Positions 40,241-57,938 of a DNA stretch of 64,000 nt are shown piece by piece. The stretch spans positions 1,836 to 65,835 of the forward strand of contig JBIOKD010000001.1 in assembly GCA_044451485.1 (NCBI GenBank), in the 5' to 3' direction. The notes below the pieces were generated by a model. It was not told where the DNA came from, did no database searches, and was given only the letters and a program-made list of their open reading frames with translations. The number at the start of each line of letters is the position of its first letter. Positions within the stretch are counted from its first letter, which is position 1. The position numbers and the translations under genes are program-made. Source of the DNA: Candidatus Eiseniibacteriota bacterium (GTDB lineage Bacteria > Eisenbacteria > RBG-16-71-46).

Positions 40241-40378
40241 CCGTCGCGCAAGCGGCGCGCGGGCGATCGTCATCACCATCACACACGTCCGGTCGAGGCG
40301 CCGGGGTCCGCGGTCACGAGCCGCGGTGGGCGCCCGAAGCACGTATCGGGCGGAGGCTTGAACCCCGCAGGAGGCAGT

Positions 40379-41146: not shown

Positions 41147-41230
41147 CGTCGCCCGCCATCCGAGGAGTGTCACGACGACGCCCGCCCGTGCCGAGACCGC
41201 GGGCGGGCGTTTCACCGAAGAGGAATCCAC

Positions 41231-41827
<597 letters not shown>

Positions 41828-41831
41828 CCGC

Positions 41832-42557
41832 GTGGCGGCGCGCTGGCAGCGGGTGCTGCTGAAGCTGAGCGGCGAGATCCTGGCCGGCGAGGACGGTGGC
41901 CACGGCATCCAGGAATCCGTCATCGCATCGCTCGCGGACGAGATCCGCGACGTGCACGCGCTCGGAGTCCAGGTGGCGATCGTGCTCGGCGGGGGCAACA
42001 TCTTCCGTGGTCTCGCGGCCAGCGCGCGGGGCATGGACCGGGTCGGCGCCGACTACATGGGGATGCTCGCCACCGTGATCAACAGTCTCGCGCTCCAGCA
42101 CTTCCTGGAGAAGCGTGGCTGCTACACGCGGGTCATGTCGGCCATCGAGATGGCGCGGGTGTGCGAGCCGTTCATCCGCCGGCGCGCGGTGCGTCATCTG
42201 GAGAAGAACCGCATCGTGATCCTGGCCGCGGGCACCGGGAACCCCTACTTCACCACCGACACCGCGGCGGCGTTGCGGGCGATCGAGACCGGCTCCGATG
42301 TGATCCTCAAGGGGACCAAGGTGGACGGGGTGTACAGCAGCGATCCCCTCCAGGACCCCACGGCCGAGTTCTTCCCTCACATCGGTTACATGGATATCCT
42401 GAGCCGCGGTCTCAAGGTGATGGATTCGACCGCGATCTCGCTGTGCATGGACAATCGCATTCCGCTGGTGGTGTTCGACATCCGGAGGAAGGGCAACCTG
42501 CTTCGGGTCGCGCAGGGCGAGCCCGTGGGAACCTGGGTGGGAGATCAACCGCGATGA
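41832..42557 (+). CDS. pyrH: UMP kinase
   Basis: [10 protein letters not shown]...[13 protein letters not shown] matches the UMP kinase signature. Confidence 0.95.
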
Positions 42558-43111
42558 CGCAGAAGATCCTGGCGGACGCAGAGGACCGCATGAAGAAGTC
42601 GGTCGAATTCGTGCGTCAAGAGCTGTCGGGTGTCCGTACGGGCAAGGCCACTCCGGCCCTGCTCGACACGGTCCGTGTCGAGGCGTACGGCTCGCTGGTG
42701 TCGATCAAGGAGGTCGGGCAGGTGACGGCGCCCGAACCGCGGATGCTCACCGTGCAACCGTGGGACAAGTCGCTGGTCAAGGTGATCAGCCGGGCGATCC
42801 AGGCGTCGGATCTGGGTCTCAACCCCACCGACGACGGCATCCTCATCCGCATCCCGCTGCCCGTCCTGACCGAGGACCGGCGCAAGGACCTGGCGAAGCT
42901 GGTCGCGAAGTTCGCGGAGGAGGGCCGGGTGCACGTGCGACAGGTCCGGCACGACATCAACAAGGACCTGCAGCACCAGCGCAAGGACGGCTCGTTGTCG
43001 GAGGACGACGAGAAGCGTCTGCACGGCGAGGTGCAGAAGCTCACCGATCGCTACATCGCGCAGATCGACGACCTCATGAAGAAGAAGCAGGCCGAGGTCA
43101 TGGAAGTCTGA
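42554..43111 (+). CDS. frr: ribosome recycling factor
   Basis: RRF fold (...[21 protein letters not shown]...). ATGA overlap with pyrH. Confidence 0.95.
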
Positions 43112-43116
43112 CCCGC

Positions 43117-43905
43117 GTGGCGCCGGTGGTCGACCCGGCGCGCGCCCCGCCCGAGGTCCCCGTGTCCAGCCGCACTCCGACGCCGGCCGAGCTGATCGCG
43201 CGTGGCAACGTGCCGCGTCACGTCGCCATCATCATGGACGGCAACGGGCGATGGGCGAAGGCGCGTGGTGTGCCGCGTCTGATGGGGCACCGCGCCGGTC
43301 GTGAATCGGTGCGCGACGTGGTGCGAGGTTGTGTCGAGCTCGGGGTCGAGGTGCTGACGCTGTACACCTTCTCGACCGAGAACTGGAACCGGCCGCCGGG
43401 AGAGGTGCGGGCGCTGATGGCGATCCTGCGTCAGACCCTGCGTCAGGAGCGGCGCGAGCTGCGCGATCGCAACGTGCGTCTCCAGGTGATCGGCCGGCGC
43501 GACGACCTGCCCCGCGAGGTGATCCGGGCGATCGAGGAGACCCAGGACTACCTTTCCACCTCCACCGGTCTGTTGCTCACCCTCGCCCTGTCGTACAGCG
43601 GTCGCACCGAGATCGTCGACGCGATGCGCCGGATGCTGGCCGATCAGCGCCGGGACGGGTTCGATCCGGGCTCGGTCGACGAAGCCCTGGTGTCGTCCTA
43701 TCTGTACACGGCCGGGCTGCCCGATCCCGATCTTCTCATCCGCACCAGCGGCGAGATGCGGGTGTCGAACTTCCTGCTCTGGCAGCTCGCCTACACCGAG
43801 TTCTGGATGACCGACACGCTGTGGCCGGATTTCCGCAGACGGCACCTGTTCCAGGCGGTCGCGGACTTCCAGGCCCGCGAGCGCCGGTTCGGACGGACGG
43901 ATTGA
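43117..43905 (+). CDS. uppS: isoprenyl transferase (undecaprenyl diphosphate synthase)
   Basis: PRHVAIIMDGNGRWA...LTLYTFSTENWNRP...RTSGEMRVSNFLLWQ matches the UppS signature. A GTG start at 43117 or 43162 is preferred over the ORF start at 42760. Confidence 0.9.
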   Translation: MAPVVDPARAPPEVPVSSRTPTPAELIARGNVPRHVAIIMDGNGRWAKARGVPRLMGHRAGRESVRDVVRGCVELGVEVLTLYTFSTENWNRPPGEVRALMAILRQTLRQERRELRDRNVRLQVIGRRDDLPREVIRAIEETQDYLSTSTGLLLTLALSYSGRTEIVDAMRRMLADQRRDGFDPGSVDEALVSSYLYTAGLPDPDLLIRTSGEMRVSNFLLWQLAYTEFWMTDTLWPDFRRRHLFQAVADFQARERRFGRTD

Positions 43906-43906
43906 G

Positions 43907-44818
43907 GTGAGCGGCGTCGTGGCTCCCGCCGGCGGCGCGCCCGACGGGCCGGCTCCGGTGTCCGACACCGGACCCAAGCGCTCGTCGTGGTCCCTGGCGC
44001 TCAGGGTGGCGAGCGGGGTGGTGTTCGTGCCCCTGCTGGTGCTGCTCGCGTTGGTGGGCGGCCTGCCGTTCTGGACGTTCGTGGCCATGGAAGTGACCGC
44101 CGGCCTGGTCGAGTTCTACCGCATGATGCGGAGCCGCGGTCTGCGACCCTACCGGCGGCTCGGCATCGCCTCGGCGGTGGCGTTGTTGTGGGTGTGCTAC
44201 CGGCCCCAGACCCCACACGTCGCCCTGCTGCTGACCGGCACCCTGCTCCTGGTGCTGGGTCTCGAGCTCAGACGGCCGGAGGCGACGCGACGCGTCGAGG
44301 ACATCGCGGTGACCTGCTTCGGTGTCTTGTACGTCGGCTGGCTCAGCGCCCACCTGGTGCTGCTGCGCGAGCTGCCGTGGCGGGCGGGGACCACGTACGC
44401 CGACGGCTCGCGTTACGTGCTGCTGGCGTTCTGGCTCACCTGGTGCTGCGACACCGGTGCCTACACGATCGGTCGGGTGATGGGTCGCAACCGGCCGTGG
44501 GCTCGGATCTCGCCACGCAAGTCGGTCGAGGGCTCGATCGGCGGCTTCGCGGCGGCGATCCTCGCGGGTCTGGTCGCACGCACCTGGTTCGCGCCCTTCC
44601 TCGCGGTGCGCGACGCGCTGGTGCTGGGAGCCATGGTCGGGTTGTTCGCGCAAGTGGGCGACCTGGTCGAATCGCTGCTCAAACGCGACGCCGGTCACGG
44701 CGACTCGTCGGAGCTGATCCCGGGTCACGGTGGCATCCTGGACCGCTTCGACAGTCTCCTGTTCGGGGCCCCCGCGGTCTACTACTACCTGCTGCTGGTC
44801 GTGTTCCGGGTGCCGTGA
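43907..44818 (+). CDS. cdsA: phosphatidate cytidylyltransferase
   Basis: C-terminal CTP_transf_1 signature ...SVEGSIGGFAAAIL...DSSELIPGHGGILDRFDSLLF. Multiple TM helices. Confidence 0.85.
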   Translation: MSGVVAPAGGAPDGPAPVSDTGPKRSSWSLALRVASGVVFVPLLVLLALVGGLPFWTFVAMEVTAGLVEFYRMMRSRGLRPYRRLGIASAVALLWVCYRPQTPHVALLLTGTLLLVLGLELRRPEATRRVEDIAVTCFGVLYVGWLSAHLVLLRELPWRAGTTYADGSRYVLLAFWLTWCCDTGAYTIGRVMGRNRPWARISPRKSVEGSIGGFAAAILAGLVARTWFAPFLAVRDALVLGAMVGLFAQVGDLVESLLKRDAGHGDSSELIPGHGGILDRFDSLLFGAPAVYYYLLLVVFRVP

Positions 44819-45966
44819 TCCGTCTCGCGGTGCTCGGGGCGACCGGCTCGATCGGCCGCCAGACGCTCGAGGTCGCGGCCCGCGAGCGGGAGCGTCTCCA
44901 GGTGGTGGCGCTCGCCGCGGGCCGGGATCGGGACGGACTCGCCGCGGCAGCCCGGACCTGGCGTCCGCGCGCCCTGGCGCTCGAGCACGCCGCCGATCCG
45001 GCGGCGGCGCGCGGGGCACTCCTCGACGCGTGTCCGGGTGCCGAGGTGTGGATCGGGCCGGACAGCGCCGCACGTCTGGTCGAAGCCACCGCGTGCGACA
45101 CGGTGGTGAACGGCATCGTCGGCGCCGCCGGTCTGGCGGCATCGCTCGCGTGTCTCGCACGCGGCGCGCGTCTGGCGCTGGCCAACAAGGAGACGCTGGT
45201 GGTGGGTGGGCCGCTGGTGCGCGCGGCCCTCGCGCGTGGCGGGACCCTGGTCCCGGTCGACAGCGAGCACAGCGCGGCGCTGCTGTGTCTCGGCGGGCGG
45301 CCGAGTGACGAGGTCGCGTGTCTCACCCTGACCGCCTCGGGTGGACCGCTGCGCGGTCATCCCGACTGGCGGCGGGCCACGCGCTCCGAGGTGCTGGCGC
45401 ATCCGGTGTGGGCCATGGGGCCACGCATCACCACCGATTCGGCGCTGCTCGTCAACAAGGCGCTCGAGCTCATCGAGGCATGCGCCCTGTTCGGGCTCGG
45501 TTGGGACCAGGTGGACGCGGTGATCCATCCCCAGGCGCGGGTCCACGCCATGGCGTCGTTCACCGACGGGGCGATGGTGGTGCAGGCGGCGCCGGCCGAC
45601 ATGCGGTTGCCGATCCAGCTCGCGCTCAGCTGGCCGGAGCACTGGGGCGCGGCCACCACGCCGCTCGCCCCCGCGGCCCTGGCCGGTCTCACCTTCGAGC
45701 CCATCCCATCCGGTGTCCATCCGGCCTACGATCTGGGCATCGCCGCCGGTCGCGCCGGAGGGACGGCACCATGTGTCTTCAATGCCGCCGACGAGATCGC
45801 GGTGGCGCGCTTCCTCGACGGCGTGATACCGCTCGGCGCGGTGCCGGAGATGATCGCGGCGGTGCTGGAGCGTCACGATCCGCGCCCGGTCGAGTCGTTC
45901 GAGCAGCTCCGGGTGGTGGACGCGTGGGCGCGTGCCGAGACCGAGCGACGGGTGGCGGCGCGATGA
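44815..45966 (+). CDS. dxr: 1-deoxy-D-xylulose 5-phosphate reductoisomerase
   Basis: LGATGSIGRQTL NADPH-binding motif; ...LANKETLVVGG...VDSEHSA... GTGA overlap with cdsA. Confidence 0.9.
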   Translation: MIRLAVLGATGSIGRQTLEVAARERERLQVVALAAGRDRDGLAAAARTWRPRALALEHAADPAAARGALLDACPGAEVWIGPDSAARLVEATACDTVVNGIVGAAGLAASLACLARGARLALANKETLVVGGPLVRAALARGGTLVPVDSEHSAALLCLGGRPSDEVACLTLTASGGPLRGHPDWRRATRSEVLAHPVWAMGPRITTDSALLVNKALELIEACALFGLGWDQVDAVIHPQARVHAMASFTDGAMVVQAAPADMRLPIQLALSWPEHWGAATTPLAPAALAGLTFEPIPSGVHPAYDLGIAAGRAGGTAPCVFNAADEIAVARFLDGVIPLGAVPEMIAAVLERHDPRPVESFEQLRVVDAWARAETERRVAAR

Positions 45967-46982
45967 GCGCGCCGGTGCTGGCGGTGCGTCTGCGCGCGCT
46001 CGGTGACGTGGTGCTCGCCACCCCGGCGCTGCGCGCGTTGCGACGCGGACATCCCGACGCACCCCTCGACGTGGTCACCGACCCGCGCTACGCACCGCTC
46101 CTCGCCGGTCTGCCCTACGTGCGCCGGGTGCACGCACTCGGTCGTGGCGACGCCGACGCGTGGCTCCTCGCGCGCCGGTTGCGTCGCGAGCGCTACGCCT
46201 GGGCGGTGGACCTGTTCGGCAATCCACGCAGCGCGCTGCTGGTGGCGCTGGCCGGCGCCACCCGCACCGCCGGATACGACCTGCGTGGACGCCGGCACGC
46301 GTACGCGGTCCGTGTCCCGGTCGAGCCGGCGCGGGCGGACGGACGGCGCGAGTACGCCGCCGCGGTGCACGTGCGTTTGGCGGAGGCCGCCGGTGGCGTG
46401 CCGGACGGTCTGCACACCGACGTGGCGCTCGACGACGCGGCGCGGGCCGCGGGGCTCACGCTGCTCGAGCGTGCCGGGGTGCGCGAGCCTCGACGCGCGG
46501 TGGCGGTGGTCGCCGCGGGCACTTGGCCCACCAAGACCTGGCCGGTGTCGGAATCCGCACGGCTCGCGCGTCGTCTGATCGGCGCCGGTTGGGAGGCGCT
46601 GCTGGTCTCGGCGCCGGGTGAGGAGGCGGTGCGCGATACCCTGCGCGCGCTCGTGCCGCGGATCGCGGTGCTGCCGGACTGCGACGTGCGTGGCATGGCC
46701 GCCAGTCTGGCGCCGCTCGCCGGGCTGGTCGGCACCGACAGTGGACCACGACACGTCGCGGCCGCGCTCGGTCTGCCCACGTTCGCCTGGTTCGGACCCA
46801 CCCACCCCGACACCTGGCAGCCGCCGGGTGAACGTCACGGGTTCTGGCAGGCGCCGCTGCCGTGCGCGGGTTGCGATCGCACCCGCTGCCCGCACTGGAA
46901 CTGTCTGCCGGGTCTGGACGGGGAGCGCGCCGCCGATCTGGTGCTCGCGCACCTGGCGCGTCATGCCGACGGCCGCGGGTGA
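45963..46982 (+). CDS. glycosyltransferase family 9 (ADP-heptose:LPS heptosyltransferase-like)
   Basis: LRALGDVVLATPALRAL (GT9 N-terminus)...GTDSGPRHVAAALGLPTFAWFGPT (C-terminus). ATGA overlap with dxr. It is inserted within the otherwise conserved dxr-rseP cluster. Confidence 0.75.
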   Translation: MSAPVLAVRLRALGDVVLATPALRALRRGHPDAPLDVVTDPRYAPLLAGLPYVRRVHALGRGDADAWLLARRLRRERYAWAVDLFGNPRSALLVALAGATRTAGYDLRGRRHAYAVRVPVEPARADGRREYAAAVHVRLAEAAGGVPDGLHTDVALDDAARAAGLTLLERAGVREPRRAVAVVAAGTWPTKTWPVSESARLARRLIGAGWEALLVSAPGEEAVRDTLRALVPRIAVLPDCDVRGMAASLAPLAGLVGTDSGPRHVAAALGLPTFAWFGPTHPDTWQPPGERHGFWQAPLPCAGCDRTRCPHWNCLPGLDGERAADLVLAHLARHADGRG

Positions 46983-47063
46983 GGCCGATGCGGACGAGGC
47001 TCGGGAGCGGGGGGCGACGTGCCGATAATCCATGGACCACGACCGGCCACCGGTGCCACCGGC

Positions 47064-47092
47064 TTGACGCTCCCCAGGTCGCGGGTTAGCCT
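47064..47092 (+). promoter_or_regulatory. candidate promoter for rseP operon: TTGACG, 17-nt spacer, TAGCCT
   Basis: Hexamers read by eye; same TTGACx-N17-TAGsyT architecture as the rplM candidate. Confidence 0.3.
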
Positions 47093-47123
47093 CCGCAAGC
47101 CCCTTAGCCCATAAGGAGTTGCC

Positions 47124-48494
47124 GTGGTCTGGTCGTACATCGTGCCTGGAGTCGTACTGCTCGGTCTCGTCATATTCGTGCACGAGCTGGGCCACTTCCT
47201 CGCCGCCAAGTGGCGCGGGGTGCGGGTACTCCGTTTCTCGTTGGGATTCGGGCCGGCGATGGTCAAGATCCAGCGCCGGGAGACCGAGTACCGGATCGCG
47301 TGGATCCCGCTCGGTGGCTACGTCCAGATGGCGGGGGACAGCCCCGACGAAGACGGGCACATGCCCGAACGCGAGGACGAGTTCCTCTCGCACCCGCCGC
47401 TGGGACGCATCGTCATCGCCGCGGCGGGTCCGTTCATGAACCTGGTCACGGCGTTCGTGGTGCTGGTGGTGGTCGCGTGGAGCGGGGTGAGCTTCCCGGA
47501 CTACCCGAACCGGCTCGGGGTCACGCCCGACACCAGCGTGGCCTACCGGGCGGGTCTGCGCGAGGGCGACCGCATCACCGCGGTGGCGGGTCAGCCGGTC
47601 ACGAGCTGGGTGCCGATCTTCGTGATCAACGACGACCTGCGTCACGACCGGCCCCTCACGCTCGAGATCCGGCGCGGCGACTCGAGCTTCGCAGTGACGG
47701 TGGGGCCCGAAGGACGCGAGCCGCTGCTCTCGAGTCTGCGACGTCCGTCGGATCCGCCGATCGTGGGCAACGTGGTGACCGGTATGCCCGCGTACAAGGC
47801 CGGCATGAAGGAGGGCGACCGGATCGTGGCGGTCGACGGTGTCCCGGTCTCCAACTGGGACCAGCTGATCCCCGACTTCCACGGCCGGGTCGACCGGCCC
47901 GTTCCGGTGACGGTGGTGCGCGACGGCCAGCGCTTCACCCTGACCGTGACTCCCATCGATCCGAGCGGCGCGCGTGACGGCAAGGAGGGCCGGATCGGCA
48001 TCGAGCCGCCGGTGCACGGTCTGTACGTGGAGCGTCACCCGCTGCTGGAGTCGATCGACATCGGCTGGCGCGCCACCGGCGAGGCCATTCTGAGCGTGTA
48101 CGGTGGCATGTGGCTCACGGTGAGCCGGCCGCTCTACTACCGCGAGTATCTGGGTGGACCCATCTTCATCGCCCAGGCGGCGAGCGAGCAGGCGCGCCGT
48201 GGCATGGATTCGTACCTCCGCTTCCTCGCCATGATCAACATCGCGATCATGGCCTTCAATCTGCTCCCCATCCCGGTGCTCGACGGCGGGCACATCGTGT
48301 GGGCGCTGGTCCAGATCGTGGCGCGCCGGTCGCTGTCCGCGGCCGGCTACATCCGTTACCAGAAGGTCGGTCTGGTGGTGGTGGGAACCCTGCTGCTGCT
48401 CATCCTCGCCAACGATCCGCTGCGTCTGGTGCAGCGGCAACGCGCGCTCGACAAGGCTCCCCAGGGGGGGCATGTTGCTCCGGGTCCGCCCTGA
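47124..48494 (+). CDS. rseP: RIP metalloprotease RseP (site-2 protease)
   Basis: HELGHFLAAK HExxH is present in TM1. PDZ domains and the LDG motif NLLPIPVLDGGH are also present. GTG start with an AAGGAG RBS. Confidence 0.9.
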   Translation: MVWSYIVPGVVLLGLVIFVHELGHFLAAKWRGVRVLRFSLGFGPAMVKIQRRETEYRIAWIPLGGYVQMAGDSPDEDGHMPEREDEFLSHPPLGRIVIAAAGPFMNLVTAFVVLVVVAWSGVSFPDYPNRLGVTPDTSVAYRAGLREGDRITAVAGQPVTSWVPIFVINDDLRHDRPLTLEIRRGDSSFAVTVGPEGREPLLSSLRRPSDPPIVGNVVTGMPAYKAGMKEGDRIVAVDGVPVSNWDQLIPDFHGRVDRPVPVTVVRDGQRFTLTVTPIDPSGARDGKEGRIGIEPPVHGLYVERHPLLESIDIGWRATGEAILSVYGGMWLTVSRPLYYREYLGGPIFIAQAASEQARRGMDSYLRFLAMINIAIMAFNLLPIPVLDGGHIVWALVQIVARRSLSAAGYIRYQKVGLVVVGTLLLLILANDPLRLVQRQRALDKAPQGGHVAPGPP

Positions 48495-50427
48495 GGGCGC
48501 ACCCCTCACGCGTGGCATCGTGCTGCTCCTCGGGCTCGCCGTCGCGGCGTCCGCCGCCCGTGCCCAGGAGGAGTTGTTGCAGGAGCTCCGATCGGTGCAC
48601 CACGTCGGCATCGTCGGCAATCGGCACGTCGGCGACCGTGAGCTCCGGGACGTGCTCAAGACCCACTCGCGTGGCCGGTGGCCGTGGTCCGAGCGACCCC
48701 CGCTGCGGATCGACTTCCTGCGCGCCGACACCACGTCGCTGTGCTCCTACTACCGGCACCTCGGGTATCTCGACGCGCACGCCGAGTGGCGCTTCCTCCC
48801 GCGTCGCGATCCCAACGAGGTGGATGTCGAGTTCCAGGTCGACGAGGGGGGGCGCACCGACATCGGCACCGTGACCCTGGTGATGTCGCGCAGCGATCTC
48901 GACCACGAGATCCGCAAGCATCTCTACGCGCGTCCCCGGCGGCCCTTCGATCCGGCCTTCCTGCAGCTCGACACGCTGGTCATCTCGTCGATCTACCAGG
49001 ACCACGGTTATCGTCCGCATGTGTTCGCGTCGTCGCGTCTGGACAGCGCCCGGCGGATCGCGAGTATCCGCTACGACGTGCTCGAGGGCCCGATCTACCA
49101 GGTGGGGGACGTCTACGTCTCCGGTTACAACCGGGTGCCCGAGCGACTCATCACCCGCGAGCTGCTCATCCACCGTGGTGACACCTACAGCCGCGACAAG
49201 ATGAAGCGCTCGCAGGAGCGGCTGTACGACACCGGTCTCTTCGACCAGGTCCAGATCACCACTCTGCCCGACTCCACCCAGACGCTGGTCGAGTACGACC
49301 TGCGGGTGCGCGAGCGCAAGTCGCGCTGGATCGAGGCCGCGGTGGGGAGTGGCACCGACGAGCGCTTCCGGCTGACCGCGAGCTGGGGCCACCGGAACCT
49401 GTTCCAGCGTGGCATGCAGTCGGCGGTCACCGGTCTGGTCTCGCTCTACGGGACCGGCGAGCTGCAACGCGCGCGTCTGGACTACTCGCTGGTGGAGCCG
49501 TGGCTGTTCCGCACCCGCACCCGTGGCCAGATCGCCCCGTTCGCGGAGCTCAAGCACGACCGCTCCGATCCACGCTGGGTGAACAATCAGCGCTTCGTCG
49601 GGTTCAACGTGGTGGTGCACCGCGACCTGAACCGGTGGACCCAGACGGCGCTCACCTTCCAGAACGTGTGGGCGCAACAGGAGCTCGAGTTCCTGCAGAC
49701 CCTCGATCCGGTCACGCTGGACTCGGTGACCGCCAACACCCTGCCACACTATCGCACCCATCTGCTCCAGCTGTCGTTCGGACGCGACACCCGTGACAGT
49801 CCGATCGTCACCACCCGCGGCTCCGCGATGTACGTGCTGGGCGAGCTCGCCGGCGGGCCGCTCGGCGGCAACACCAACTACACCAAAGCCGAGTTGGTCC
49901 CGGCGTGGTACACGCCGACCCGGAGATTCATCGTCGCCACCCGGGTGCGGGCCGGCGTCATGGCGCCGTTCAAGGAGACCACCGCGATCAGCCCCGGCGA
50001 GGATCCGCGGGTGGCCGCGATTCCGCTCGAGAACCGCTTCCGGGTCGGTGGCGTGAACTCGGTGCGTGGCTACGCCGAGAACACCATCCCGCCGACCGGT
50101 GGTCTGTCGGTGCTGCTCGGAACGGTCGAGCTGCGCGCGCCGCTGGCCCAGATCAGCAAGCTCGGCTCGATCGGAGTGGAGCTGTTCGTGGACGCCGGCA
50201 ACGTCTGGACCCGACCCGGCGCGATGCGGATCGGAAACCTCGCCCCGACGGTGAGCCGAACCCCGCTGGGGGGGGACGACGTCCGATGGGTGTTCGGGGT
50301 CGGTCCCCGGCTGGAGACCCCGATCGGGCCGCTGCGCTTCGACTGGTCCTGGAATTTCCGTCCGGTGACCGATGTCCGTGGCTACCTGGTACCGGTCTTG
50401 CAATTCGCCATCGGACCCTCATTCTGA
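48472..50427 (+). CDS. Omp85-family outer membrane protein assembly factor (BamA positional ortholog with reduced POTRA count, TamA-like size)
   Basis: 651 aa. Signal peptide, about three POTRA repeats, C-terminal 16-strand barrel motifs (...VNSVRGY...LRAPL...ELFVDAGNVW...), terminal Phe. Located after rseP as bamA is in many genomes. Confidence 0.85.
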   Translation: MLLRVRPEGAPLTRGIVLLLGLAVAASAARAQEELLQELRSVHHVGIVGNRHVGDRELRDVLKTHSRGRWPWSERPPLRIDFLRADTTSLCSYYRHLGYLDAHAEWRFLPRRDPNEVDVEFQVDEGGRTDIGTVTLVMSRSDLDHEIRKHLYARPRRPFDPAFLQLDTLVISSIYQDHGYRPHVFASSRLDSARRIASIRYDVLEGPIYQVGDVYVSGYNRVPERLITRELLIHRGDTYSRDKMKRSQERLYDTGLFDQVQITTLPDSTQTLVEYDLRVRERKSRWIEAAVGSGTDERFRLTASWGHRNLFQRGMQSAVTGLVSLYGTGELQRARLDYSLVEPWLFRTRTRGQIAPFAELKHDRSDPRWVNNQRFVGFNVVVHRDLNRWTQTALTFQNVWAQQELEFLQTLDPVTLDSVTANTLPHYRTHLLQLSFGRDTRDSPIVTTRGSAMYVLGELAGGPLGGNTNYTKAELVPAWYTPTRRFIVATRVRAGVMAPFKETTAISPGEDPRVAAIPLENRFRVGGVNSVRGYAENTIPPTGGLSVLLGTVELRAPLAQISKLGSIGVELFVDAGNVWTRPGAMRIGNLAPTVSRTPLGGDDVRWVFGVGPRLETPIGPLRFDWSWNFRPVTDVRGYLVPVLQFAIGPSF

Positions 50428-50438
50428 TTCACGATCCC

Positions 50439-53400
50439 ATGACCGAGCCCCGCGAACCCGATCCCGACCGCCCCGACGACGCGGAGCCAGGCCTCGTGCG
50501 CCGTCTCGGCGAGCGGGTCGAGGGCGCGGTGGAGCGCGCCGAGGAGCGGGTGACGCGCGCCGAGCACGCGCTCGAGGAGGCGGTCGACGAGGCGATCGGG
50601 GGCGTGGTCGAGCACGTCCCCGAGGCGGCGCGCAAGCCGCTTCGCTGGACGGTCCGGAAGATCGTGTTGCTGGTGGTGATCGGCGCGTTCGTGCTGGCCG
50701 TGCTGGGGACCGCGGGCACCGCGTACTACCTGTGGAATCACACGAGCTACGCGGCGCACGAGCTGACCGGCCGGATCAACGCGGTGCTGAGGGAGCGAAG
50801 CGACGTCGAGCTGACGCTCGACGGGTTGCGTGGCAACCCGCTCGGGACGGTCACCGTGGTCCATCCCCAGGTGCGCTTCCGCGACCGCGTCGGACCATCC
50901 TTCCTCGAGGCGGATGCGATGCGGCTGCGCTGGTCCACCTGGGACCTTTTGTGGTCGCGTCGTGGGGCGCTGGTGATCGAGATGGATCATCCGGTGCTCC
51001 GTCTCGAGAACGGACCCGACGGCCGGCTCCGGGTGCCGTCGTGGGAGGCCGGTCCGCCGACTCACGGTGTGGGGCGTGCCTGGAGCTTCGAGCTCCGCCT
51101 GCGTGACGGCGAGCTCCAGACCCCCGACACCGCGCTCGCGACACGCGGGCTCGACGTGGATCTGCGCTACGTCACCGATCCGGCGCGTCTCGATCTGCGC
51201 TCGTTGTCGTGGCGTCAGGGCCCCTGGGGCAGCCGGCTCGACCGGCTGAGCGGTGATGTGGCCGTGGGGGACAGCGTGGTGGTTCGGGTCACGCGTCTCG
51301 AGAGCCCCGACCTCGCCCTCACCGCGCGCGCGACATGGCCGCGCGCGGGCGGGCCCCGGCAGGTGCACGCCGACGTGCAACGGGTGCGCTGGGCCTGGCT
51401 GGCGCGGGTGTTCGTCAACGACGTCCTGGACGTGCCGGGTTCGGCCCGCTTCTCGGCCGACTTGACCGGCGAGCGGAGCTGGAGCGGCCGCGCACACGCC
51501 GTGCTCGACTGGGACGCCACTCCGATCACGACCGACGGACGCTTCACCTTCGACCACGGTCGTCTGGTGGTGTCACCGCTCAGTGGCGATTCGCCGATCG
51601 GGCGGCTCGACGACGGCCGGGTGACGTGGAGCAGTGCCGGCTGGTCGGTGGAGGGTCGTGGCACCGGCGCCAATCCGGCCGAGTGGGGGGTGCTCGGGGT
51701 CGAGGGCTGGCCGGCCGGCAAGCTCGATGGCCACTTCCGCTACCTGGCGGAGACCGGCCGGGTGCGACGCGGACACTTGAGCGCCGATCTCGCCACGTGC
51801 GAGTGGACCGGGTGGCACGCCGACAGCGGACACGTCGAGGTGGAGTTCCCGGCCAACGGTCCGGTGTCCTTCGGCGTGCGCGCCAGCCGCCGGCACGGGA
51901 CTTTGACGCTGGATGGGCAGACCGCGGACGACGGCTGGTCGGGCGACTACACCGTGCACGAGTTCCCGCTCGACGAATGGCCCGACGGCCGCGCCTCCGG
52001 GATCCGCGGTTGGCTCGCCGACGGCAGCGGCTCGGTGCACGGCGTCGGAGGTGGTCTCGACGTGCGGGGGACACTCGAGGGCCACGCCACCGACTGGTTC
52101 GGCGCCACGATGAACCGCTGGCGGCTGTCCCGAGTCGAGGGGCGTCTGCTCCCCACGCCCGATCTGACCGCCGACGCCCGGCTCGAGAACCTCATGTTCC
52201 TGGGTCTCCACTGGGACAGCGCGACCACCACGATCCACCTCGGTGACCGGCGTCTCCACTTCGACGGACTGCGGGTGGTGGCGGGGGACACGCTGGTGAG
52301 CATGGACGGCGATACCGACTGGGACGAGAGCGGATGGCGTCTGGATGCCGGTCGCGCGCGCATGACCAGCCGTCACTTCGACTGGACCGCCGAGCCACCG
52401 CTCCGTCTCGCCGGTGATCGCGACGGGGTCCAGTTCACGCACGTCACCGCCGACGACGGCAACGCCTCGTTCACCGCCGAGGGGCGCTGGGGCTCGCCAC
52501 CACACGGGCGCTACGCGTGGCGCGGACACGCGCATCAGCTCGATCTGGCGCGACTGGGGCTGCCCGACGACTGGGGGCTCGGCGGCATCGCCGACGCCGA
52601 GATCACCGTGGACGGGGTGTCGGGCGATCCGCACTGGACCTTCACCGGGAGCGCGCGCCACGCGGCATTCGGCGGACACGCCGCCGATTCGGTGGCGCTG
52701 TCGCTGGGCGGCGCACCGCATCTGCTCGAGGTGCGGCAGGCGACGCTGGTGGTCGGCTCGGGCGCGGCACGGGGCTCCGGACGGGTGAGCGGCACCGCGC
52801 GGGCATGGCCCGATTCACTCACCTTCACCGGGATCACGCGCTGGCTGGCCGACGCCGCGTCGTGGGAGGGACGCGCGGTGGTGTCGCGGATCGCGATCGA
52901 TCGCTGCGGTGCGGTGTGGCCCGCCGCGTTGGACTGGTCGGGGACGCTCAACGGGCGGGCGACCTTCGGTGGCCGGCCGTCGGCGCCGGAATTCCACGCC
53001 GAGGCGGACGCCGCGCCACTCGTGTGGCGTGGTTTCTCGCTCGGGAGCGCCACCCTCGAGGCGGACTACCAGCAGGGGACGCTGTCGCTCAAGACGCTCA
53101 AGATGTCGCGCGAGGGATTGCGCTTCGACGCCAAGGGGACGCTGCCGCTCGATCTCGCCCTCGGGACGACGCCACAGGTTCCCGAGCGGCCGATGGCCTT
53201 CCAAGTGAGTCTGCCGGACGGCGATCTCGGCATCGCGCCGCAATTGGTGCCACAGATCGGCTATGCCGCCGGGCGTTTCGTGGTCGAGGCGCAAGTGGCC
53301 GGGACCGCGAAACACCCCGAGCTGAGCGGCCGGGTCGCGGTGCGCGACGGCCGGGTGCGGCTCGCCGGCCGCGAGGAGGTGCTCGAGCAGGTGCGGGCCG

Positions 53401-54602
53401 ACGCCCACCTGTCGGCCGACGCGATCACCATCGACAGTCTGTCGGCGGTCCAGCCCACCCATGTCCGGGGGCAGCGCGGCACCATCACCGGGAGCGGCTG
53501 GGCCAAGCTCGGCGCGTCGGGACCGGGGGACTACCGGTTCGATCTCGCGATGCGGGACTTCACCGCCATCGAGCCGGGCTGGTACGTCGCCGAGTTCGAT
53601 GGCGACGTGGTGGTGAGCAACGGCCCCAAGGTGCACGGCACCGTGGTGCCGAGGGTCACCTCCGACGACGTGCGGGTGAGACGCGCGGTGGTGCTCTACG
53701 ACTTCACGCGGCAGACCGAGACCCAGGCGGTCGCGGCCAGCACCCAGCCGTTGTTCTGGGTGTACCGCCTGCATCTGACCGCGAACGACAACGTGCAGTG
53801 GAAGCCGGCCGACGCGGACATCGAGTTCAGCGCCGACCTGGTGGCCGAGCAGACCCCGGATTCGCTGCTGCTCTACGGCGACCTGACCGCGCTGCGTGGC
53901 ACGTACTACTTCCTGGCCAACAAGTTCACGGTCGACCGCGCGAACCTGAGCTTCGACAACGTCGGTGGCGTCGATCCGACCCTCGACATCCAGGCCACCA
54001 CCCAGATCTCGACCACCGCGAACGACCCGCCGCTGCCCGGCGAGCAGTCCGTGAAATACGACATCGTGGTCGGCATCACCGGGCGCTCGCGGGAGCCGGC
54101 GATCACCTTCAACAGCAACCCGACCGGGCTCGACGAGGCGCGCATCCTGCGCGAGCTCACCCTGGGTGGCCCGACCCGTGGCTTCGGCAGCGTGGTCGGG
54201 GATCCGCTCGACAGCTACCTCACCCGTCAGATCAACCGCCAGCTCTCGAGCGAGCTCTCGCACGCCTTCAACGGCTGGGTGAACGAATGGGAACTATCCC
54301 GTGAGTCGGGAGGTCTGTTCACCGGCAGCGGCGACGTGGTGGTGGGGGTCGGCAGTCAGATCAACCGCAACCTGGCGGTGCGCTATCGCCAGCGCGTGCC
54401 CGGCACCACCCGGCTCGAGACCCTGCCCAACACCGCCGGCCAGGACCTGTTCGAGCGGGACATGGAGGCCGAATATCGCCTCAATCGGTTCTTCTCGGTG
54501 ACCAGTGAGGTGGCACAGCGCCGCTCGCTCAACGGCGCCGGCGCCAGTGTCACCGCGGCACCGACTTTCAACGTCAACCTTCGCGCCCGGTGGGAGTATT
54601 GA
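50439..54602 (+). CDS. tamB: translocation and assembly module subunit TamB (AsmA-like, DUF490)
   Basis: 1388 aa. Single N-terminal TM anchor (IVLLVVIGAFVLAVLGTAG), a long beta-rich repeat region, and a C-terminal DUF490-like segment (...LSFDNVGGVDPTLDIQATTQIS...). Confidence 0.8.
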   Translation: MTEPREPDPDRPDDAEPGLVRRLGERVEGAVERAEERVTRAEHALEEAVDEAIGGVVEHVPEAARKPLRWTVRKIVLLVVIGAFVLAVLGTAGTAYYLWNHTSYAAHELTGRINAVLRERSDVELTLDGLRGNPLGTVTVVHPQVRFRDRVGPSFLEADAMRLRWSTWDLLWSRRGALVIEMDHPVLRLENGPDGRLRVPSWEAGPPTHGVGRAWSFELRLRDGELQTPDTALATRGLDVDLRYVTDPARLDLRSLSWRQGPWGSRLDRLSGDVAVGDSVVVRVTRLESPDLALTARATWPRAGGPRQVHADVQRVRWAWLARVFVNDVLDVPGSARFSADLTGERSWSGRAHAVLDWDATPITTDGRFTFDHGRLVVSPLSGDSPIGRLDDGRVTWSSAGWSVEGRGTGANPAEWGVLGVEGWPAGKLDGHFRYLAETGRVRRGHLSADLATCEWTGWHADSGHVEVEFPANGPVSFGVRASRRHGTLTLDGQTADDGWSGDYTVHEFPLDEWPDGRASGIRGWLADGSGSVHGVGGGLDVRGTLEGHATDWFGATMNRWRLSRVEGRLLPTPDLTADARLENLMFLGLHWDSATTTIHLGDRRLHFDGLRVVAGDTLVSMDGDTDWDESGWRLDAGRARMTSRHFDWTAEPPLRLAGDRDGVQFTHVTADDGNASFTAEGRWGSPPHGRYAWRGHAHQLDLARLGLPDDWGLGGIADAEITVDGVSGDPHWTFTGSARHAAFGGHAADSVALSLGGAPHLLEVRQATLVVGSGAARGSGRVSGTARAWPDSLTFTGITRWLADAASWEGRAVVSRIAIDRCGAVWPAALDWSGTLNGRATFGGRPSAPEFHAEADAAPLVWRGFSLGSATLEADYQQGTLSLKTLKMSREGLRFDAKGTLPLDLALGTTPQVPERPMAFQVSLPDGDLGIAPQLVPQIGYAAGRFVVEAQVAGTAKHPELSGRVAVRDGRVRLAGREEVLEQVRADAHLSADAITIDSLSAVQPTHVRGQRGTITGSGWAKLGASGPGDYRFDLAMRDFTAIEPGWYVAEFDGDVVVSNGPKVHGTVVPRVTSDDVRVRRAVVLYDFTRQTETQAVAASTQPLFWVYRLHLTANDNVQWKPADADIEFSADLVAEQTPDSLLLYGDLTALRGTYYFLANKFTVDRANLSFDNVGGVDPTLDIQATTQISTTANDPPLPGEQSVKYDIVVGITGRSREPAITFNSNPTGLDEARILRELTLGGPTRGFGSVVGDPLDSYLTRQINRQLSSELSHAFNGWVNEWELSRESGGLFTGSGDVVVGVGSQINRNLAVRYRQRVPGTTRLETLPNTAGQDLFERDMEAEYRLNRFFSVTSEVAQRRSLNGAGASVTAAPTFNVNLRARWEY

Positions 54603-54707: not shown

Positions 54708-57700
54708 ATGACGGCGGATCGAGATCGCGGCGACCAGTTGGGAAGACGTGGGCGTGCCGCTGGCCTGGTGGCGGTGGCGCTGATGGCGGCGGGGATCGCG
54801 CTGGCGACGGTCCCGGCACGGGCCCAGGACTTGTTCGGACAGAACAAGGTGCAGTACCGCGTGTTCGACTGGCGGTACCTGTCCTCCGACCACTTCGACG
54901 TCTACTACTACGGCGACCTCGACAGCCTGGCCCTGCGGGTCCTCGACCTCGCCGAGAAAGCCAACGGCTACCTATCGGTCCGGATGGGGCACCAGCTCTC
55001 CAACAAGGTGCCGATCATCCTGTACGGCTCGCACAACGAGTTCTCGCAGACCAATGTGACCCAGGAGCTGCTCACGGGGAGCACCGGCGGTTTCACCGAG
55101 GTGTATCGCAACCGGGTGGTGCTGCCGTTTACCGGGTCCTACGAGGATCTGCGGCACGTGGTGGTGCACGAGCTCACCCACGCGTTCATGTTCGACATGC
55201 TGTACAACGGCGCGGCCAGCTCGATGATCGCGCGGCAGGCGTTCTTCGCCCCGCCGCTGTGGTTCGCCGAGGGCATGGCCGAGTACTACTCGCTCGGTCT
55301 CGACGATCCGAACATGCGCGTCTACGTGCGCGACGGGGCGTTGAACGACCAGCTTCCGCCACTCGAATACGCCGGCGGCTACGTCGGGGTCTACAAGCAG
55401 GGTCAGGCCGTCCTGGGCTACCTGGTGGACCGCTTCGGCGAGGACCGGCTGCGCGAGATGTACCGGCGGATGCGCTCGTCACGGGACTTCGACGCGGCGT
55501 TCCAGCGCGTCTACGGTACCTCGGTCCAGAAGTTCGACGAGGACTGGCGGAACGAGCTCAAGACACGCTACTGGCCACTGATCGCCGACAAGTACGAGCC
55601 GGACCGCTACGGCCGGCGTCTCACCGATCACCGGCGCGACGAGAGCAACTTCAACACCGCCCCGGCGATCTCCCCACAGGGCGACCGGATCGTCTACTAC
55701 TCCGATCGGCGGCAGTACACCGACGTGTACCTGATGTCGGCGTTCGACGGCCGGGTGATCCGGCGTCTGATCCGCGGCGAGCAGGACGTCAAGTTCGAGT
55801 CGGTGCCCTCGTTCCGCAGCTCGCTCACCTGGTCGCCGGAGGGTGGCCGCGTGGCGATGACCGCCAAGAGCGGCGGGCGCGATCTCCTCTACGTGGTGTC
55901 CGTCGACGAGGCGAAGCTGATCCGCTCCTACGATCTCGGCTGCGAGGCGCTGGCCTATCCGTCGTGGTCGCCGGTCGCGGACTCGGTGGTCGTGGTCGGA
56001 TTGAAGGGCGGCCGGTCCGACCTGTACATGGTCGCGCTCCGAACCGGCGACGTCACCCGTCTCACCAACGACACCTGGGACGAGCGCCAGCCGAGCTGGA
56101 CCCCGGACGGCCGCGCGCTGGCCTTCTCCTCGGACCGTGTCGCGTCGGTGGTGCTACAGCCCCAGCGCACCCGCGACGGCTACGGTTACTACGGGCTCTA
56201 CAGTCTCGACCTGGCGAGCCGCGAGGTGCGGCCGATCCTGCACACCGCCGGTGACGACCAGTGGCCGGCCTGGTCGAACGATGGACGCAAACTGGCCTTC
56301 ATCTCGGACGCGCGTGGCACCCCGGACGTGTATCTCTACGACACCCAGGACAGCACCGTGCTCCACGCCACCCAGGTGATGGGCGGCGTCCAGAGCCTCT
56401 CGTGGTCACGCGAGAACGACCGGATCGTGTTCTCGGTCTACGACCACGGCGGGTTCGACGTGTTCACCGTGCGCGAGCCGCTGTCGCTCGAGACGCGTCT
56501 GGCGCGGCTGCGTCGCGACCGGCCCCAGGACGTGCTCACCCTGGCCCAGCTCCAGCACGCGGTGAGCGACACGCTGCCGCCGCGGATCGATCAGGGCGCG
56601 CTGGCGGGGGCGTGGCCCGACACGCTGACCATGGCCGCCGACACCCTTTCCGGCAAGGTCGCGTCACGCGCCCCCCCGGAGACGGCGTCACGCGACACCA
56701 CACACGCGATGCCGCGGCTCGATCCCATGAACCCGACGTGGGCGGGGATGCAGCCGCCGCCGAGCGACTTCTCCACGCGGCCGGACACCCTGGCCCCGCT
56801 CGCCACCCGATTCCCGCTCCACGAGCGCGGCGGCCCGTTCGCGATCTCGGACACACTGCTGGCCCAGAAGCCGTCGCGGTATCGGGTGCGCTACAGCGCC
56901 GACTACGCGGGAGGCTCCCTCTACGCCACCAATGTCGGCGCGCTGGGAGCCACCCAGGTGGCGCTCAGCGACTTCCTCGGCGACCGCCGCATCGATCTGG
57001 CCCTCGGCCTGTACAGCAACTCGCTCTCCGATGCCAACGTCTACGTGGCCTACAATTACCTTCCGCGACGTACGGACGTGACCATCGCGGCGTTCCACTA
57101 CAAGGAGTACTTCGAATCCCGTTACACGTCGCTGGGCGAGCAGTTCTCGAGCGACCAGCTCTATTCGGACCGCAACTTCGGCGGCGCGCTGTTGCTGAGC
57201 TACCCGTTCAACCAGTTCCGCCGTGTCGAGCTGGGACTCACCCAACGCTGGGTGGACCGCACTTTCTTCGTCGTGGACGATTTCGGCAACCTGCTCTCGA
57301 CCAGCCACGTGCTGCGCTCGGTGACCTCACCCTCGATCGGCTTGATCTTCGACAACGCGTTGTACGGCTACTACGGACCGGTGAACGGCACGCGTTACAA
57401 CATCACCTACAGCCCGGCCCTCCCGCTCGGGGGCTCGGCACTGTCGTATCAGACCGCCACCCTCGACTGGCGGCGGTACATCGATCTCACACACGGCTAC
57501 CAGTTCGCGCGGCGTTTCCTGGTCGGATACAGCGACGGTCCCAGTCCGCAGTACTTCCGCATCGGCGGCTTCTCGACCCTGCGTGGCTACTCGACGTATT
57601 CGGTGGTGGGCAGCCGCATTGGGGTCGCCAATGTCGAGCTCCGCTTCCCGTTCATCCAACAGCTCGGGCTCGTCGGTCCGCTGCCGATCGGGATCTTCAA

Positions 57701-57938
57701 CATGAAGGGGGCGCTGTTCAGCGACGTCGGCACCGCCTTCAACGGCGGCTACAAGCCCCGTGGCACCACGATCGACGAGAATGGCAATCGCCGGCTGCAG
57801 GACATCCTCCTCGACTACGGCGTCGGGATCCGCACCTCGTTCCTCTACACCCTGGTCAAGCTGGACGTGGCGTGGCGGACCGACCTCCAGTCCACCAGCC
57901 GGCCGGTGTGGCAGTTCAGCATCGGCCCCGAGTTGTGA
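54708..57938 (+). CDS. three-part secreted protein: N-terminal peptidase-MA-like (HExxH) domain, PD40/TolB beta-propeller, C-terminal Omp85-type beta-barrel
   Basis: Signal peptide AAGLVAVALMAAGIALATVPARA. HELTHAF HExxH with a downstream E (EGMAEYY). PD40-like repeats (...ISPQGDRIVYYSDR..., ...TWSPEGGRVAMTAK..., ...PSWSPVADSVVV..., ...PSWTPDGRALAFSSDR..., ...PAWSNDGRKLAFISDAR...). C-terminal barrel motifs (RIGGFSTLRGY, ANVELRFPF, GALFSDVGTAF, GVGIRTSFLYTLVKLDVAW, WQFSIGPEL). Confidence 0.7.
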   Translation: MTADRDRGDQLGRRGRAAGLVAVALMAAGIALATVPARAQDLFGQNKVQYRVFDWRYLSSDHFDVYYYGDLDSLALRVLDLAEKANGYLSVRMGHQLSNKVPIILYGSHNEFSQTNVTQELLTGSTGGFTEVYRNRVVLPFTGSYEDLRHVVVHELTHAFMFDMLYNGAASSMIARQAFFAPPLWFAEGMAEYYSLGLDDPNMRVYVRDGALNDQLPPLEYAGGYVGVYKQGQAVLGYLVDRFGEDRLREMYRRMRSSRDFDAAFQRVYGTSVQKFDEDWRNELKTRYWPLIADKYEPDRYGRRLTDHRRDESNFNTAPAISPQGDRIVYYSDRRQYTDVYLMSAFDGRVIRRLIRGEQDVKFESVPSFRSSLTWSPEGGRVAMTAKSGGRDLLYVVSVDEAKLIRSYDLGCEALAYPSWSPVADSVVVVGLKGGRSDLYMVALRTGDVTRLTNDTWDERQPSWTPDGRALAFSSDRVASVVLQPQRTRDGYGYYGLYSLDLASREVRPILHTAGDDQWPAWSNDGRKLAFISDARGTPDVYLYDTQDSTVLHATQVMGGVQSLSWSRENDRIVFSVYDHGGFDVFTVREPLSLETRLARLRRDRPQDVLTLAQLQHAVSDTLPPRIDQGALAGAWPDTLTMAADTLSGKVASRAPPETASRDTTHAMPRLDPMNPTWAGMQPPPSDFSTRPDTLAPLATRFPLHERGGPFAISDTLLAQKPSRYRVRYSADYAGGSLYATNVGALGATQVALSDFLGDRRIDLALGLYSNSLSDANVYVAYNYLPRRTDVTIAAFHYKEYFESRYTSLGEQFSSDQLYSDRNFGGALLLSYPFNQFRRVELGLTQRWVDRTFFVVDDFGNLLSTSHVLRSVTSPSIGLIFDNALYGYYGPVNGTRYNITYSPALPLGGSALSYQTATLDWRRYIDLTHGYQFARRFLVGYSDGPSPQYFRIGGFSTLRGYSTYSVVGSRIGVANVELRFPFIQQLGLVGPLPIGIFNMKGALFSDVGTAFNGGYKPRGTTIDENGNRRLQDILLDYGVGIRTSFLYTLVKLDVAWRTDLQSTSRPVWQFSIGPEL

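Follow-up and report, generated by a model that had tools for sequence, protein, structure and literature searches.

Gene organisation of the locus

We analysed a stretch of 64,000 nucleotides from an uncultured soil bacterium of Candidatus Eiseniibacteriota (Eisenbacteria; GenBank assembly GCA_044451485.1, contig JBIOKD010000001.1, positions 1,836 to 65,835), hereafter the window, which contains a pair of adjacent genes for an outer-membrane protein of the Omp85 family and a TamB protein. We read the pair as probably a counterpart to TAM (translocation and assembly module), in which the Omp85 partner of TamB has been derived from BamA. The window has a G+C content of about 70%, and its series of forward-strand genes was established with a codon-position filter and family scans. 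The pair and the genes around it are as follows.

48472..50427, forward strand: Omp85-family insertase, 651 residues, BamA-like with three POTRA domains (PF01103, PF07244, TIGR03303, AlphaFold2)
50439..54602, forward strand: tamB, 1387 residues, AsmA-like and envelope-spanning (PF04357, junction sequence)
47124..48494, forward strand: rseP, site-2 intramembrane metalloprotease, 456 residues (TIGR00054, PF02163)
54708..57938, forward strand: second Omp85-barrel protein, 1076 residues (Pfam/NCBIfam, alignment, AlphaFold2)
40358..46982, forward strand: rpsB-tsf-pyrH-frr-uppS-cdsA-dxr and a family-9 glycosyltransferase (Pfam matches)

The genes are closely spaced. The ATG of the Omp85 gene lies within the end of rseP, giving an overlap of 23 nt, while 11 nt separate the Omp85 stop from the start of tamB and 105 nt separate tamB from the downstream gene, whose best start is the ATG at 54708. 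Promoter and terminator scans returned nothing, and in particular nothing terminator-like, at the junctions between rseP, the Omp85 gene, tamB and the downstream gene, with match counts close to those expected from shuffled sequence.

The original prediction for this locus described rseP, a POTRA-reduced Omp85 gene and tamB behind a conserved block running from the ribosomal genes to dxr, and this order was borne out by Pfam scans with the E. coli block as the reference, which places the Omp85 gene in the bamA slot by synteny. The protein does have the TamA-like size of 651 residues that was proposed, and the estimate of about three POTRA domains became exactly three by AlphaFold2 and profile alignment. 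The tight spacing to tamB was also correct, although TamB has 1387 rather than 1388 residues and the gap is 11 rather than 12 nt. A second Omp85 barrel is indeed encoded just downstream, but the protein is a peptidase and propeller fusion and not of the POTRA type. The prediction also stated that skp, lpxD, fabZ and lpxA do not follow, and neither these genes nor lpxB were found by Pfam scans and by tblastn with the E. coli proteins, which covered the 64 kb of the window and 79 related loci and reached 10 kb either side of the locus in the relatives.

A three-POTRA Omp85 protein collinear with BamA

The 651-residue protein is identical over its full length (100%) to the NCBI protein P0001, which comes from a 67.8-kb contig of a Candidatus Eisenbacteria metagenome-assembled genome (MAG). 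Among the homologues listed, at least 120, sizes range from 560 to 688 residues throughout. Three regions can be distinguished.

48472..48564, forward strand: Sec-type signal peptide, residues 1-31 (sequence, hydrophobicity, model)
48592..49314, forward strand: three POTRA domains (AlphaFold2 secondary structure, phmmer, profile coordinates)
49324..50424, forward strand: 16-strand Omp85 barrel, residues 285-651 (model strand count, PF01103)

The N-terminus, MLLRVRPEGAPLTRGIVLLLGLAVAASAARAQEE, has a hydrophobic peak over residues 9-30 and a signal peptide that ends in AASAARA, followed by QEE. There is no cysteine in this segment, hence no lipobox, in contrast to the lipoprotein signal peptide of TamL. 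An AlphaFold2 model built from 44 homologues had a predicted local distance difference test score (pLDDT) of 86.5, with residues 1-37 helical and of low confidence. In the model the beta-alpha-alpha-beta-beta unit of the POTRA fold occurs three times, at residues 41-124 (48592-48843), 130-204 (48859-49083) and 210-281 (49099-49314), rather than the five times expected of BamA.

These three domains are collinear with POTRA3, 4 and 5 of BamA. Positions 151-740 of the 741 in the BamA profile TIGR03303 align with residues 41-650, and phmmer aligned residues 177-467 of E. coli BamA with residues 42-328, as well as residues 178-459 of BamA from N. gonorrhoeae with the same protein. The 16 barrel strands of the model span residues 285-647 and the protein ends in QFAIGPSF. 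The PF01103 match covers residues 311-651 with 137 bits, and the (V/I)RG(F/Y) signature of loop 6 is present as GGVNSVRGY at residues 526-534, in which G526, G527 and R532 are invariant across the 44 homologues. The modelled fold matches structures of both BamA and TamA, with a template modelling score (TM-score), normalised to the target, of 0.80 for TamA from P. aeruginosa (8us1).

The TamB protein

TamB is encoded directly behind the Omp85 gene and has two recognisable features.

50652..50723, forward strand: N-terminal signal-anchor helix, about residues 72-95 (hydrophobicity)
53469..54521, forward strand: C-terminal TamB/DUF490 domain, residues 1011-1361 (PF04357)

The helix is the only strong hydrophobic window of the protein, with a Kyte-Doolittle value of 2.7 at residue 75. 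Ahead of it lies an acidic, Glu/Arg-rich extension of about 70 residues (1-71; 50439-50651), which is presumably cytoplasmic. The C-terminal domain scored 121 bits on PF04357 against a cut-off of 22.4, and the protein ends in RARWEY, with an aromatic last residue. It thus carries both the signal anchor and the terminal aromatic residue by which Heinz et al. in 2015 recognised TamB proteins (PMC4494059). It does not belong to the proteobacterial equivalog NF047952, on which it scored 20.5 bits against a cut-off of 825, and a sequence search against the chains of solved TamB structures returned no match.

Relationship to BamA, TamA and TamL

We compared the Omp85 protein with the curated profiles for the three known kinds of TamB partner. 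On the BamA equivalog TIGR03303 it scored 228 bits, below the curated cut-off of 297.15; on the TamA equivalog NF047950 it scored 63 bits against 625, and on the TamL profile NF052279 65 bits against 400. For calibration, E. coli BamA from which POTRA1-2 had been removed scored 756 bits on TIGR03303 and E. coli TamA scored 134 bits in fragments, whilst E. coli TamA scored 842 bits on NF047950. The protein shares with TamA three POTRA domains followed by an Omp85 barrel and a gene position immediately ahead of tamB, an adjacency that is conserved. By sequence, then, the protein derives from BamA, its architecture resembles that of TamA, and the curated profiles place it in none of the BamA, TamA and TamL families.

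We constructed trees by neighbour joining only, from a profile-guided and a MAFFT alignment. The BamA proteins linked to skp, including that of E. coli, formed a clade with 83% bootstrap support in the first and 58% in the second. In both trees the Eisenbacterial Omp85 proteins fell outside this canonical clade, and P0436, a five-POTRA BamA described below, fell inside it.

Conservation across relatives

A scan with one genome per species gave the 79 related loci, about 75 of the Eisenbacteria type and four from Calditrichia. In essentially all Eisenbacteria-type loci with sufficient flanking sequence, tblastn recovered the order uppS-cdsA-dxr-(glycosyltransferases)-rseP-Omp85-tamB-(peptidase/propeller/Omp85)-uvrD. 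The same order occurs in divergent sister lineages (L068-L070), in lower-GC relatives and in further metagenome contigs. TamB adjoins the Omp85 protein in 72 of the 79 loci, the remainder ending at contig edges, and in 24 of 70 the distance from the Omp85 stop to the first TamB residue that aligns is 30 nt or less. Five loci from MAGs of the SMAG series have Eisenbacteria-type synteny and sequence under other taxon labels (L001, L019, L031, L051 and L068, labelled as Limnocylindria, Udaeobacter, Saccharimonadaceae, Methylomirabilota and Limnocylindrales); either the labels appear to be wrong or the bins are contaminated.

The conserved order also bears on whether a truncated or mis-started bamA, or a chimeric contig, could have produced a three-POTRA protein artificially. 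The open frame reaches upstream to 48235 and the sequence comes from a MAG contig, which leave some room for such an error. Against this, the homologues listed have the sizes given above and the same N-terminal signal peptide, the order recurs in about 75 independent Eisenbacteria-type assemblies, and the structure model is complete and confident. Homologue sizes, shared signal peptide, synteny and model together refute an artefact, to which we attach next to no probability.

In an exhaustive profile search the nearest relatives of the Eisenbacterial family were other three-POTRA proteins of about 650 residues. The next by score, at similar levels, were long Omp85 proteins of about 890-960 residues and proteins of canonical length (730-790 residues). 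The long proteins with readable context (P0410, P0417 from Gemmatimonadota, P0346 and P0383) are all encoded directly after tamB, and the canonical-length matches reside in bamA-skp-lpx clusters. In Calditrichia a 1339-residue TamB is encoded directly upstream of a three-POTRA Omp85 protein (L076, 6010-11866; L078, 3048-8904), and these Omp85 proteins are collinear with the BamA profile and score 279-296 bits on TIGR03303, slightly below its cut-off. The Calditrichia pair suggests a wider family of non-lipidated, three-POTRA TamB partners in the FCB (Fibrobacterota, Chlorobiota and Bacteroidota) group. Four further proteins of 904-1491 residues (P0434, P0447, P0466 and P0483) combine TamB (PF04357), POTRA and Omp85 domains in one product and represent either true TamB-Omp85 fusions or read-through calls across overlapping tamB and omp85 genes.

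A probable separate canonical BamA

Whether the 651-residue protein could be the only BamA of the cell depends on a second, canonical gene. The window also contains an lpxL-like acyltransferase gene (6176-7159), and this and the heptosyltransferase-like family-9 glycosyltransferase gene point to an organism that makes lipopolysaccharide (LPS); an lpx cluster must therefore exist somewhere in the genome. A candidate for such a cluster was found on the Joint Genome Institute (JGI) contig Ga0418799_066274 (3300039157), of 206,716 bp, with bamA-skp-lpxD at 175.8-178.1 kb. Here P0436, a 757-residue BamA with five POTRA domains and a TIGR03303 score of 458 bits across positions 3-727 of the profile, is encoded in the locus L095 (165778-188051) within the series lysS-lolCE-lolD-mcsA-mcsB-clpC-bamA-skp-lpxD-lpxC/fabZ-lpxA-...-lpxB-kdtA-lpxK. 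P0206, an Eisenbacterial homologue of the downstream gene, has a single JGI contig on record, which is likewise 206,716 bp long and from the same source. From the identical length and source we infer that P0436 and P0206 lie on one contig, and by our estimate two of the long contigs concerned would agree in length by chance with a probability well below 1%.

The composition of the DNA is consistent with this assignment. The 22-kb stretch of L095 gave a mean tetranucleotide correlation of 0.922 with GC-matched Eisenbacteria loci, equal to that of non-orthologous DNA from the window, used as a positive control; the corresponding values were 0.849 for Gemmatimonadota and 0.873 for another high-GC control. 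Across loci the tetranucleotide similarity of L095 did not correlate with identity to P0206, and the signature therefore supports an affinity at the level of the phylum only. We conclude that Eisenbacteria very probably have a separate canonical bamA-skp-lpxD cluster, and a second BamA would then be expected in this particular genome too.

Two other candidates for an Eisenbacterial BamA were rejected. P0271, the best long match from high-GC DNA, belongs to a rare tamB-linked lineage; a homologue search from P0271 yielded P0436. The high-GC canonical cluster L087, which encodes P0535, has proteins 42-62% identical to those of L095, BamA proteins that are 30% identical, and a lower tetranucleotide fit. 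Three mutually divergent lineages, with proteins 42-62% identical (L095, L087/L088 and L091/L092), share a bamA-skp-lpx cluster with a fused lpxC/fabZ beside mcsA-mcsB-clpC. In L095 and L087 clpC lies directly upstream of bamA; L091 has its mcsA-mcsB-clpC genes on the downstream side of lpx. The linkage of this protein-arginine-kinase and ClpC quality-control unit to genes of outer-membrane biogenesis is unusual.

A peptidase-propeller-Omp85 protein encoded behind tamB

The gene behind tamB has a product of 1076 residues in which a signal peptide leads into a Peptidase_MA_2 domain and then a TolB/PD40-like propeller, and a disordered linker connects these to an Omp85 barrel without POTRA domains.

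About 54855-55592, forward strand: Peptidase_MA_2 domain with HELTH (Pfam/NCBIfam)
About 55680-56477, forward strand: TolB/PD40-like beta-propeller (Pfam/NCBIfam, model residues 325-590)
About 56892-57935, forward strand: POTRA-less Omp85 barrel (Omp85_fam, model residues 729-1072)

In an alignment of 34 sequences the residues H154, E155, H158 and E188 are invariant, corresponding to the HELTH motif and a later glutamate. The match to Omp85_fam covers residues 890-1073 with 43.6 bits, and in the AlphaFold2 model, with a pLDDT of 72, the propeller occupies residues 325-590 and the barrel residues 729-1072. A TolB-like propeller N-terminal to a POTRA-less Omp85 barrel is the arrangement that defines the WD40-Omp85 subfamily of Heinz & Lithgow in 2014 (PMC4104836), and the protein belongs here by its architecture; unlike the Eisenbacterial protein, however, no member described in that survey has a Peptidase_MA_2 domain.

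The gene follows tamB in 58 related loci. Among Eisenbacteria its product is 55-60% identical, and so is more conserved than the 651-residue Omp85 protein, at about 45%, and also more conserved than TamB. Homologues of about 30% identity in other lineages have no recognisable tamB adjacent. In one complete Eisenbacteria chromosome (L037, OY970178.1) rseP, the Omp85 gene and tamB are kept and the downstream gene is absent, tamB being followed by uvrD and gatA. In the window, uvrD, gatA and gatB follow after 57938.

Genes ahead of the Omp85 gene

The full order upstream in Pfam scans is maf-rplM-rpsI-rpsB-tsf-pyrH-frr-uppS-cdsA-dxr, then the family-9 glycosyltransferase (GT9) gene at about 46003-46982 and rseP. 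The rseP gene starts with GTG behind an AAGGAG ribosome-binding site. Its product is a member of the RseP family, with 278 bits on TIGR00054 against a cut-off of 147.55 and a match to Peptidase_M50 (PF02163) and PDZ. HELGH occupies residues 20-24 of the protein, which also has two PDZ domains and the motif NLLPIPVLDGGH.

The spacing between the GT9 gene and rseP is 141 nt here (46983-47123). In many relatives a cassette of 3-5 kb lies at this point (L090, 1142-6495; L004, L011 and L067), which is absent from the window and contains LPS or O-antigen genes, namely a glycosyltransferase of family 2 (GT2), two of family 4 (GT4) and a Wzy_C ligase or polymerase-like gene. Further upstream, at 17618-19066 on the forward strand, two Peptidase_S26 (signal peptidase I) genes follow lepA in tandem.

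Comparison with known TamB partners

Several features of the pair resemble the TAM of E. coli. In both, an Omp85 protein of three POTRA domains and a 16-stranded barrel is encoded ahead of tamB with a spacer close to zero, tamA and tamB overlapping by 4 nt in E. coli where a gap of 11 nt is found here. In both, TamB has an N-terminal anchor, a DUF490 domain and an aromatic C-terminus, and bamA-skp-lpxD forms a separate cluster, in Eisenbacteria very probably. The differences lie in the Omp85 protein, which is not TamA by sequence and has POTRA domains collinear with POTRA3-5 of BamA, where the match of E. coli TamA to the BamA profile is fragmentary, and in the surroundings, the Eisenbacterial pair being placed directly after rseP with the third gene, for the peptidase-propeller-Omp85 protein, behind it. 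In the solved TamAB structure the C-terminal domain of TamB sits inside the barrel, a hybrid barrel is formed by pairing of the final strand of TamB with strand 1 of the barrel, and a hydrophobic groove carries phospholipid (PMC12800296).

Outside Proteobacteria, operons in which BamA is paired with TamB are well known. A duplicated BamA in an operon with TamB has been described in Acidobacteria and Aquificae, with seven POTRA domains reported for some (Heinz et al. 2015, PMC4494059). As here, this is a BamA-type Omp85, neither TamA nor TamL, encoded beside tamB; it occurs in addition to a canonical BamA, as is very probable here too, and in Acidobacteria the order is likewise BamA-TamB. The tamB-linked long Omp85 proteins, such as P0417 of Gemmatimonadota, rank with the long relatives that score best on the Eisenbacterial profile. 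These long or duplicated proteins differ in having about 890-960 residues, and the alignment offsets of the long matches fit about seven POTRA domains rather than three; the sampled long relatives have the order tamB-omp85, and none is linked to rseP.

In Spirochaetes the partner of TamB is the only BamA, with five POTRA domains (PMC4494059). The Eisenbacterial locus resembles that of Borrelia burgdorferi in having a BamA-type Omp85 beside tamB, and in Borrelia TamB contacts the POTRA domains of BamA (PMC5582053, PMC11361582). The Borrelia protein is, however, the sole BamA, has five POTRA domains and is encoded in the order tamB-bamA, where Eisenbacteria very probably have a separate canonical BamA.

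Bacteroidota have BamA alongside TamL and TamA-like proteins, and their tamL does not share an operon with tamB (PMC12045153). TamL of Bacteroidota and Chlorobiota is a three-POTRA partner of TamB within the FCB superphylum that exists alongside BamA (PMC12045153), a role and setting that are probable for the three-POTRA Eisenbacterial protein as well. An N-terminal cysteine is, however, essential in TamL, which is a lipoprotein, and the signal peptide of the Eisenbacterial protein is a plain one. A further published description is that of the BamA-like subfamily, which has one to three POTRA domains, clusters apart from BamA and occurs in addition to it (Heinz & Lithgow 2014, PMC4104836). The 651-residue protein fits this description in its three POTRA domains and its position outside the canonical clade, and its coexistence with BamA is supported indirectly. 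No linkage to rseP or tamB is described in that paper for either the BamA-like or the WD40-Omp85 subfamily.

Discussion

The analysis establishes the gene content, domain architecture and spacing of the locus and a synteny that extends across the phylum. We propose, with a probability of about 0.65, that it encodes a lineage-specific TAM-like module of Candidatus Eisenbacteria in which a BamA-derived Omp85 protein serves as the partner of TamB, in addition to a canonical BamA. That the Omp85 protein and TamB form a physical complex, what its substrates are and that the pair is co-transcribed with rseP and the downstream gene are inferences. The 651-residue protein would be an outer-membrane insertase derived from BamA that keeps only the three membrane-proximal POTRA domains. 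TamB would be held in the inner membrane by its one N-terminal helix and cross the periplasm as a long beta-rich groove ending in the DUF490 domain, and by analogy with the solved TamAB its C-terminus may dock into or against the barrel and POTRA domains of the Omp85 protein. The pair would then bridge the envelope and may support the insertion of outer-membrane proteins, the delivery of phospholipid, or both. The general BamA would most probably be the separate five-POTRA protein encoded elsewhere in a clpC-bamA-skp-lpxD-lpxC/fabZ-lpxA-lpxB cluster, in which case the 651-residue protein would correspond to TamA or TamL in function and would not be the sole BamA.

The BamA-type POTRA domains, the linkage to rseP and the conserved third gene for a peptidase-propeller-Omp85 fusion are features specific to the lineage. 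Within this lineage the rseP linkage is genuine and old. The simplest explanation would be a remnant of an ancestral adjacency of rseP and bamA that persisted after duplication, the alternative being a TAM operon that was inserted at this position. A more specific history, in which the 651-residue protein is the positional descendant of the ancestral bamA, the copy in the rseP slot having specialised for TamB and lost POTRA1-2 whilst the other kept all five and moved with skp and lpx, is one we consider rather doubtful.

Several observations weigh against our proposal, and most of them would fit a cell in which the 651-residue protein, with its three POTRA domains, is the sole BamA and cooperates with TamB in the manner of Borrelia or Deinococcus-Thermus, and from which skp and lpx have moved away to other sites. 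The gene occupies the exact bamA slot, after uppS-cdsA-dxr and rseP; BamA is the best family match, collinear through POTRA3-5 and the barrel; and the POTRA domains resemble those of BamA more closely than the POTRA domains of E. coli TamA do, TamA scoring a fragmented 134 bits. A family profile hidden Markov model run over six-frame open reading frames detected no second POTRA-type Omp85 or BamA, either in the window or in the 10 kb on each side of the locus in the 79 relatives. Genomes with BamA and TamB only are common (PMC4494059), and a three-POTRA BamA can be the main BamA, as in cyanobacteria (PMC4104836). The deep nodes and backbone of both neighbour-joining trees lack resolution, and a position outside the canonical clade is by itself no proof of paralogy, since Heinz et al. 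argued that BamA-TamB with a single BamA is the ancestral configuration (PMC4494059). The placement of P0436 and P0206 on one contig is deduced from length and source, and contact between the Omp85 protein and TamB is proposed by analogy with TamAB.

What makes a sole BamA unlikely in our judgement is the canonical BamA with skp-lpxD on a contig that is very probably Eisenbacterial, together with the position of P0436 inside the canonical clade and of the Eisenbacterial Omp85 proteins outside it. In addition, the relatives of known context are linked to tamB, and Bacteroidota, which are relatives within the FCB superphylum, retain BamA besides TamL or TamA. The partnership in the BamA-TamB style put forward in the original prediction therefore stands in so far as an Omp85-TamB pair is encoded, but its Omp85 protein is probably not the only BamA of the cell. 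The likeness to spirochaetes that was drawn with it is probably wrong, given the position outside the canonical clade, the tamB-linked relatives and the canonical P0436 on a probable Eisenbacterial contig, and the gene order is Omp85-tamB, not the tamB-bamA of Borrelia (PMC4494059). That prediction also named two results that would speak against it: a canonical bamA with skp-lpxD elsewhere, which we have found indirectly, and a firm grouping with TamA, which neither the profile (63 against 625 bits) nor the trees gave. The phylogeny it called for set the protein apart from the skp-linked BamA clade, but with the deep nodes as poorly resolved as described.

It is also conceivable that the Omp85 protein and TamB are co-regulated without forming a complex, for example if the Omp85 protein inserts or translocates the product of the downstream gene and TamB acts as a lipid bridge on its own. 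Heinz et al. left open that operon linkage reflects shared regulation (PMC4494059), and the downstream gene is linked in 58 loci and encodes a better conserved protein (55-60%) than the Omp85 gene (about 45%). However, all TamB proteins studied pair with an Omp85 protein, whether TamA, TamL or BamA; the Eisenbacterial TamB ends in an aromatic residue resembling a beta-signal, and in TamAB it is this residue that docks into the barrel of the partner; and L037 keeps the Omp85 gene and tamB without the downstream gene. We regard co-regulation alone as quite improbable, and less likely than a sole BamA.

If the rather doubtful history were correct in which the copy in the rseP slot specialised for TamB and lost POTRA1-2, Eisenbacteria and their sister lineages would keep an independent, convergent TamA-like partner that arose from BamA and whose POTRA domains are still of the BamA type. 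This would match the step that Heinz et al. postulated for the origin of TamA, and the module would include the downstream gene as its third component. The locus leaves the present view of outer-membrane biogenesis unchanged. Nevertheless, TamB-type bridges and their Omp85 partners are now being studied as routes for lipids and proteins to the outer membrane, and the existing data on TamB come almost entirely from Proteobacteria, Borrelia and two Bacteroidota. The locus would add an example, conserved across a phylum in an uncultured lineage of the FCB superphylum, of a TamB partner that is neither TamA nor TamL and is derived from BamA. It also cautions against assuming that whatever gene fills the bamA slot after rseP encodes the BamA of the cell. 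Comparison with such a protein may help to define which features of the POTRA domains and barrel are required by TamB, and how BamA gives rise to TamA-like partners.

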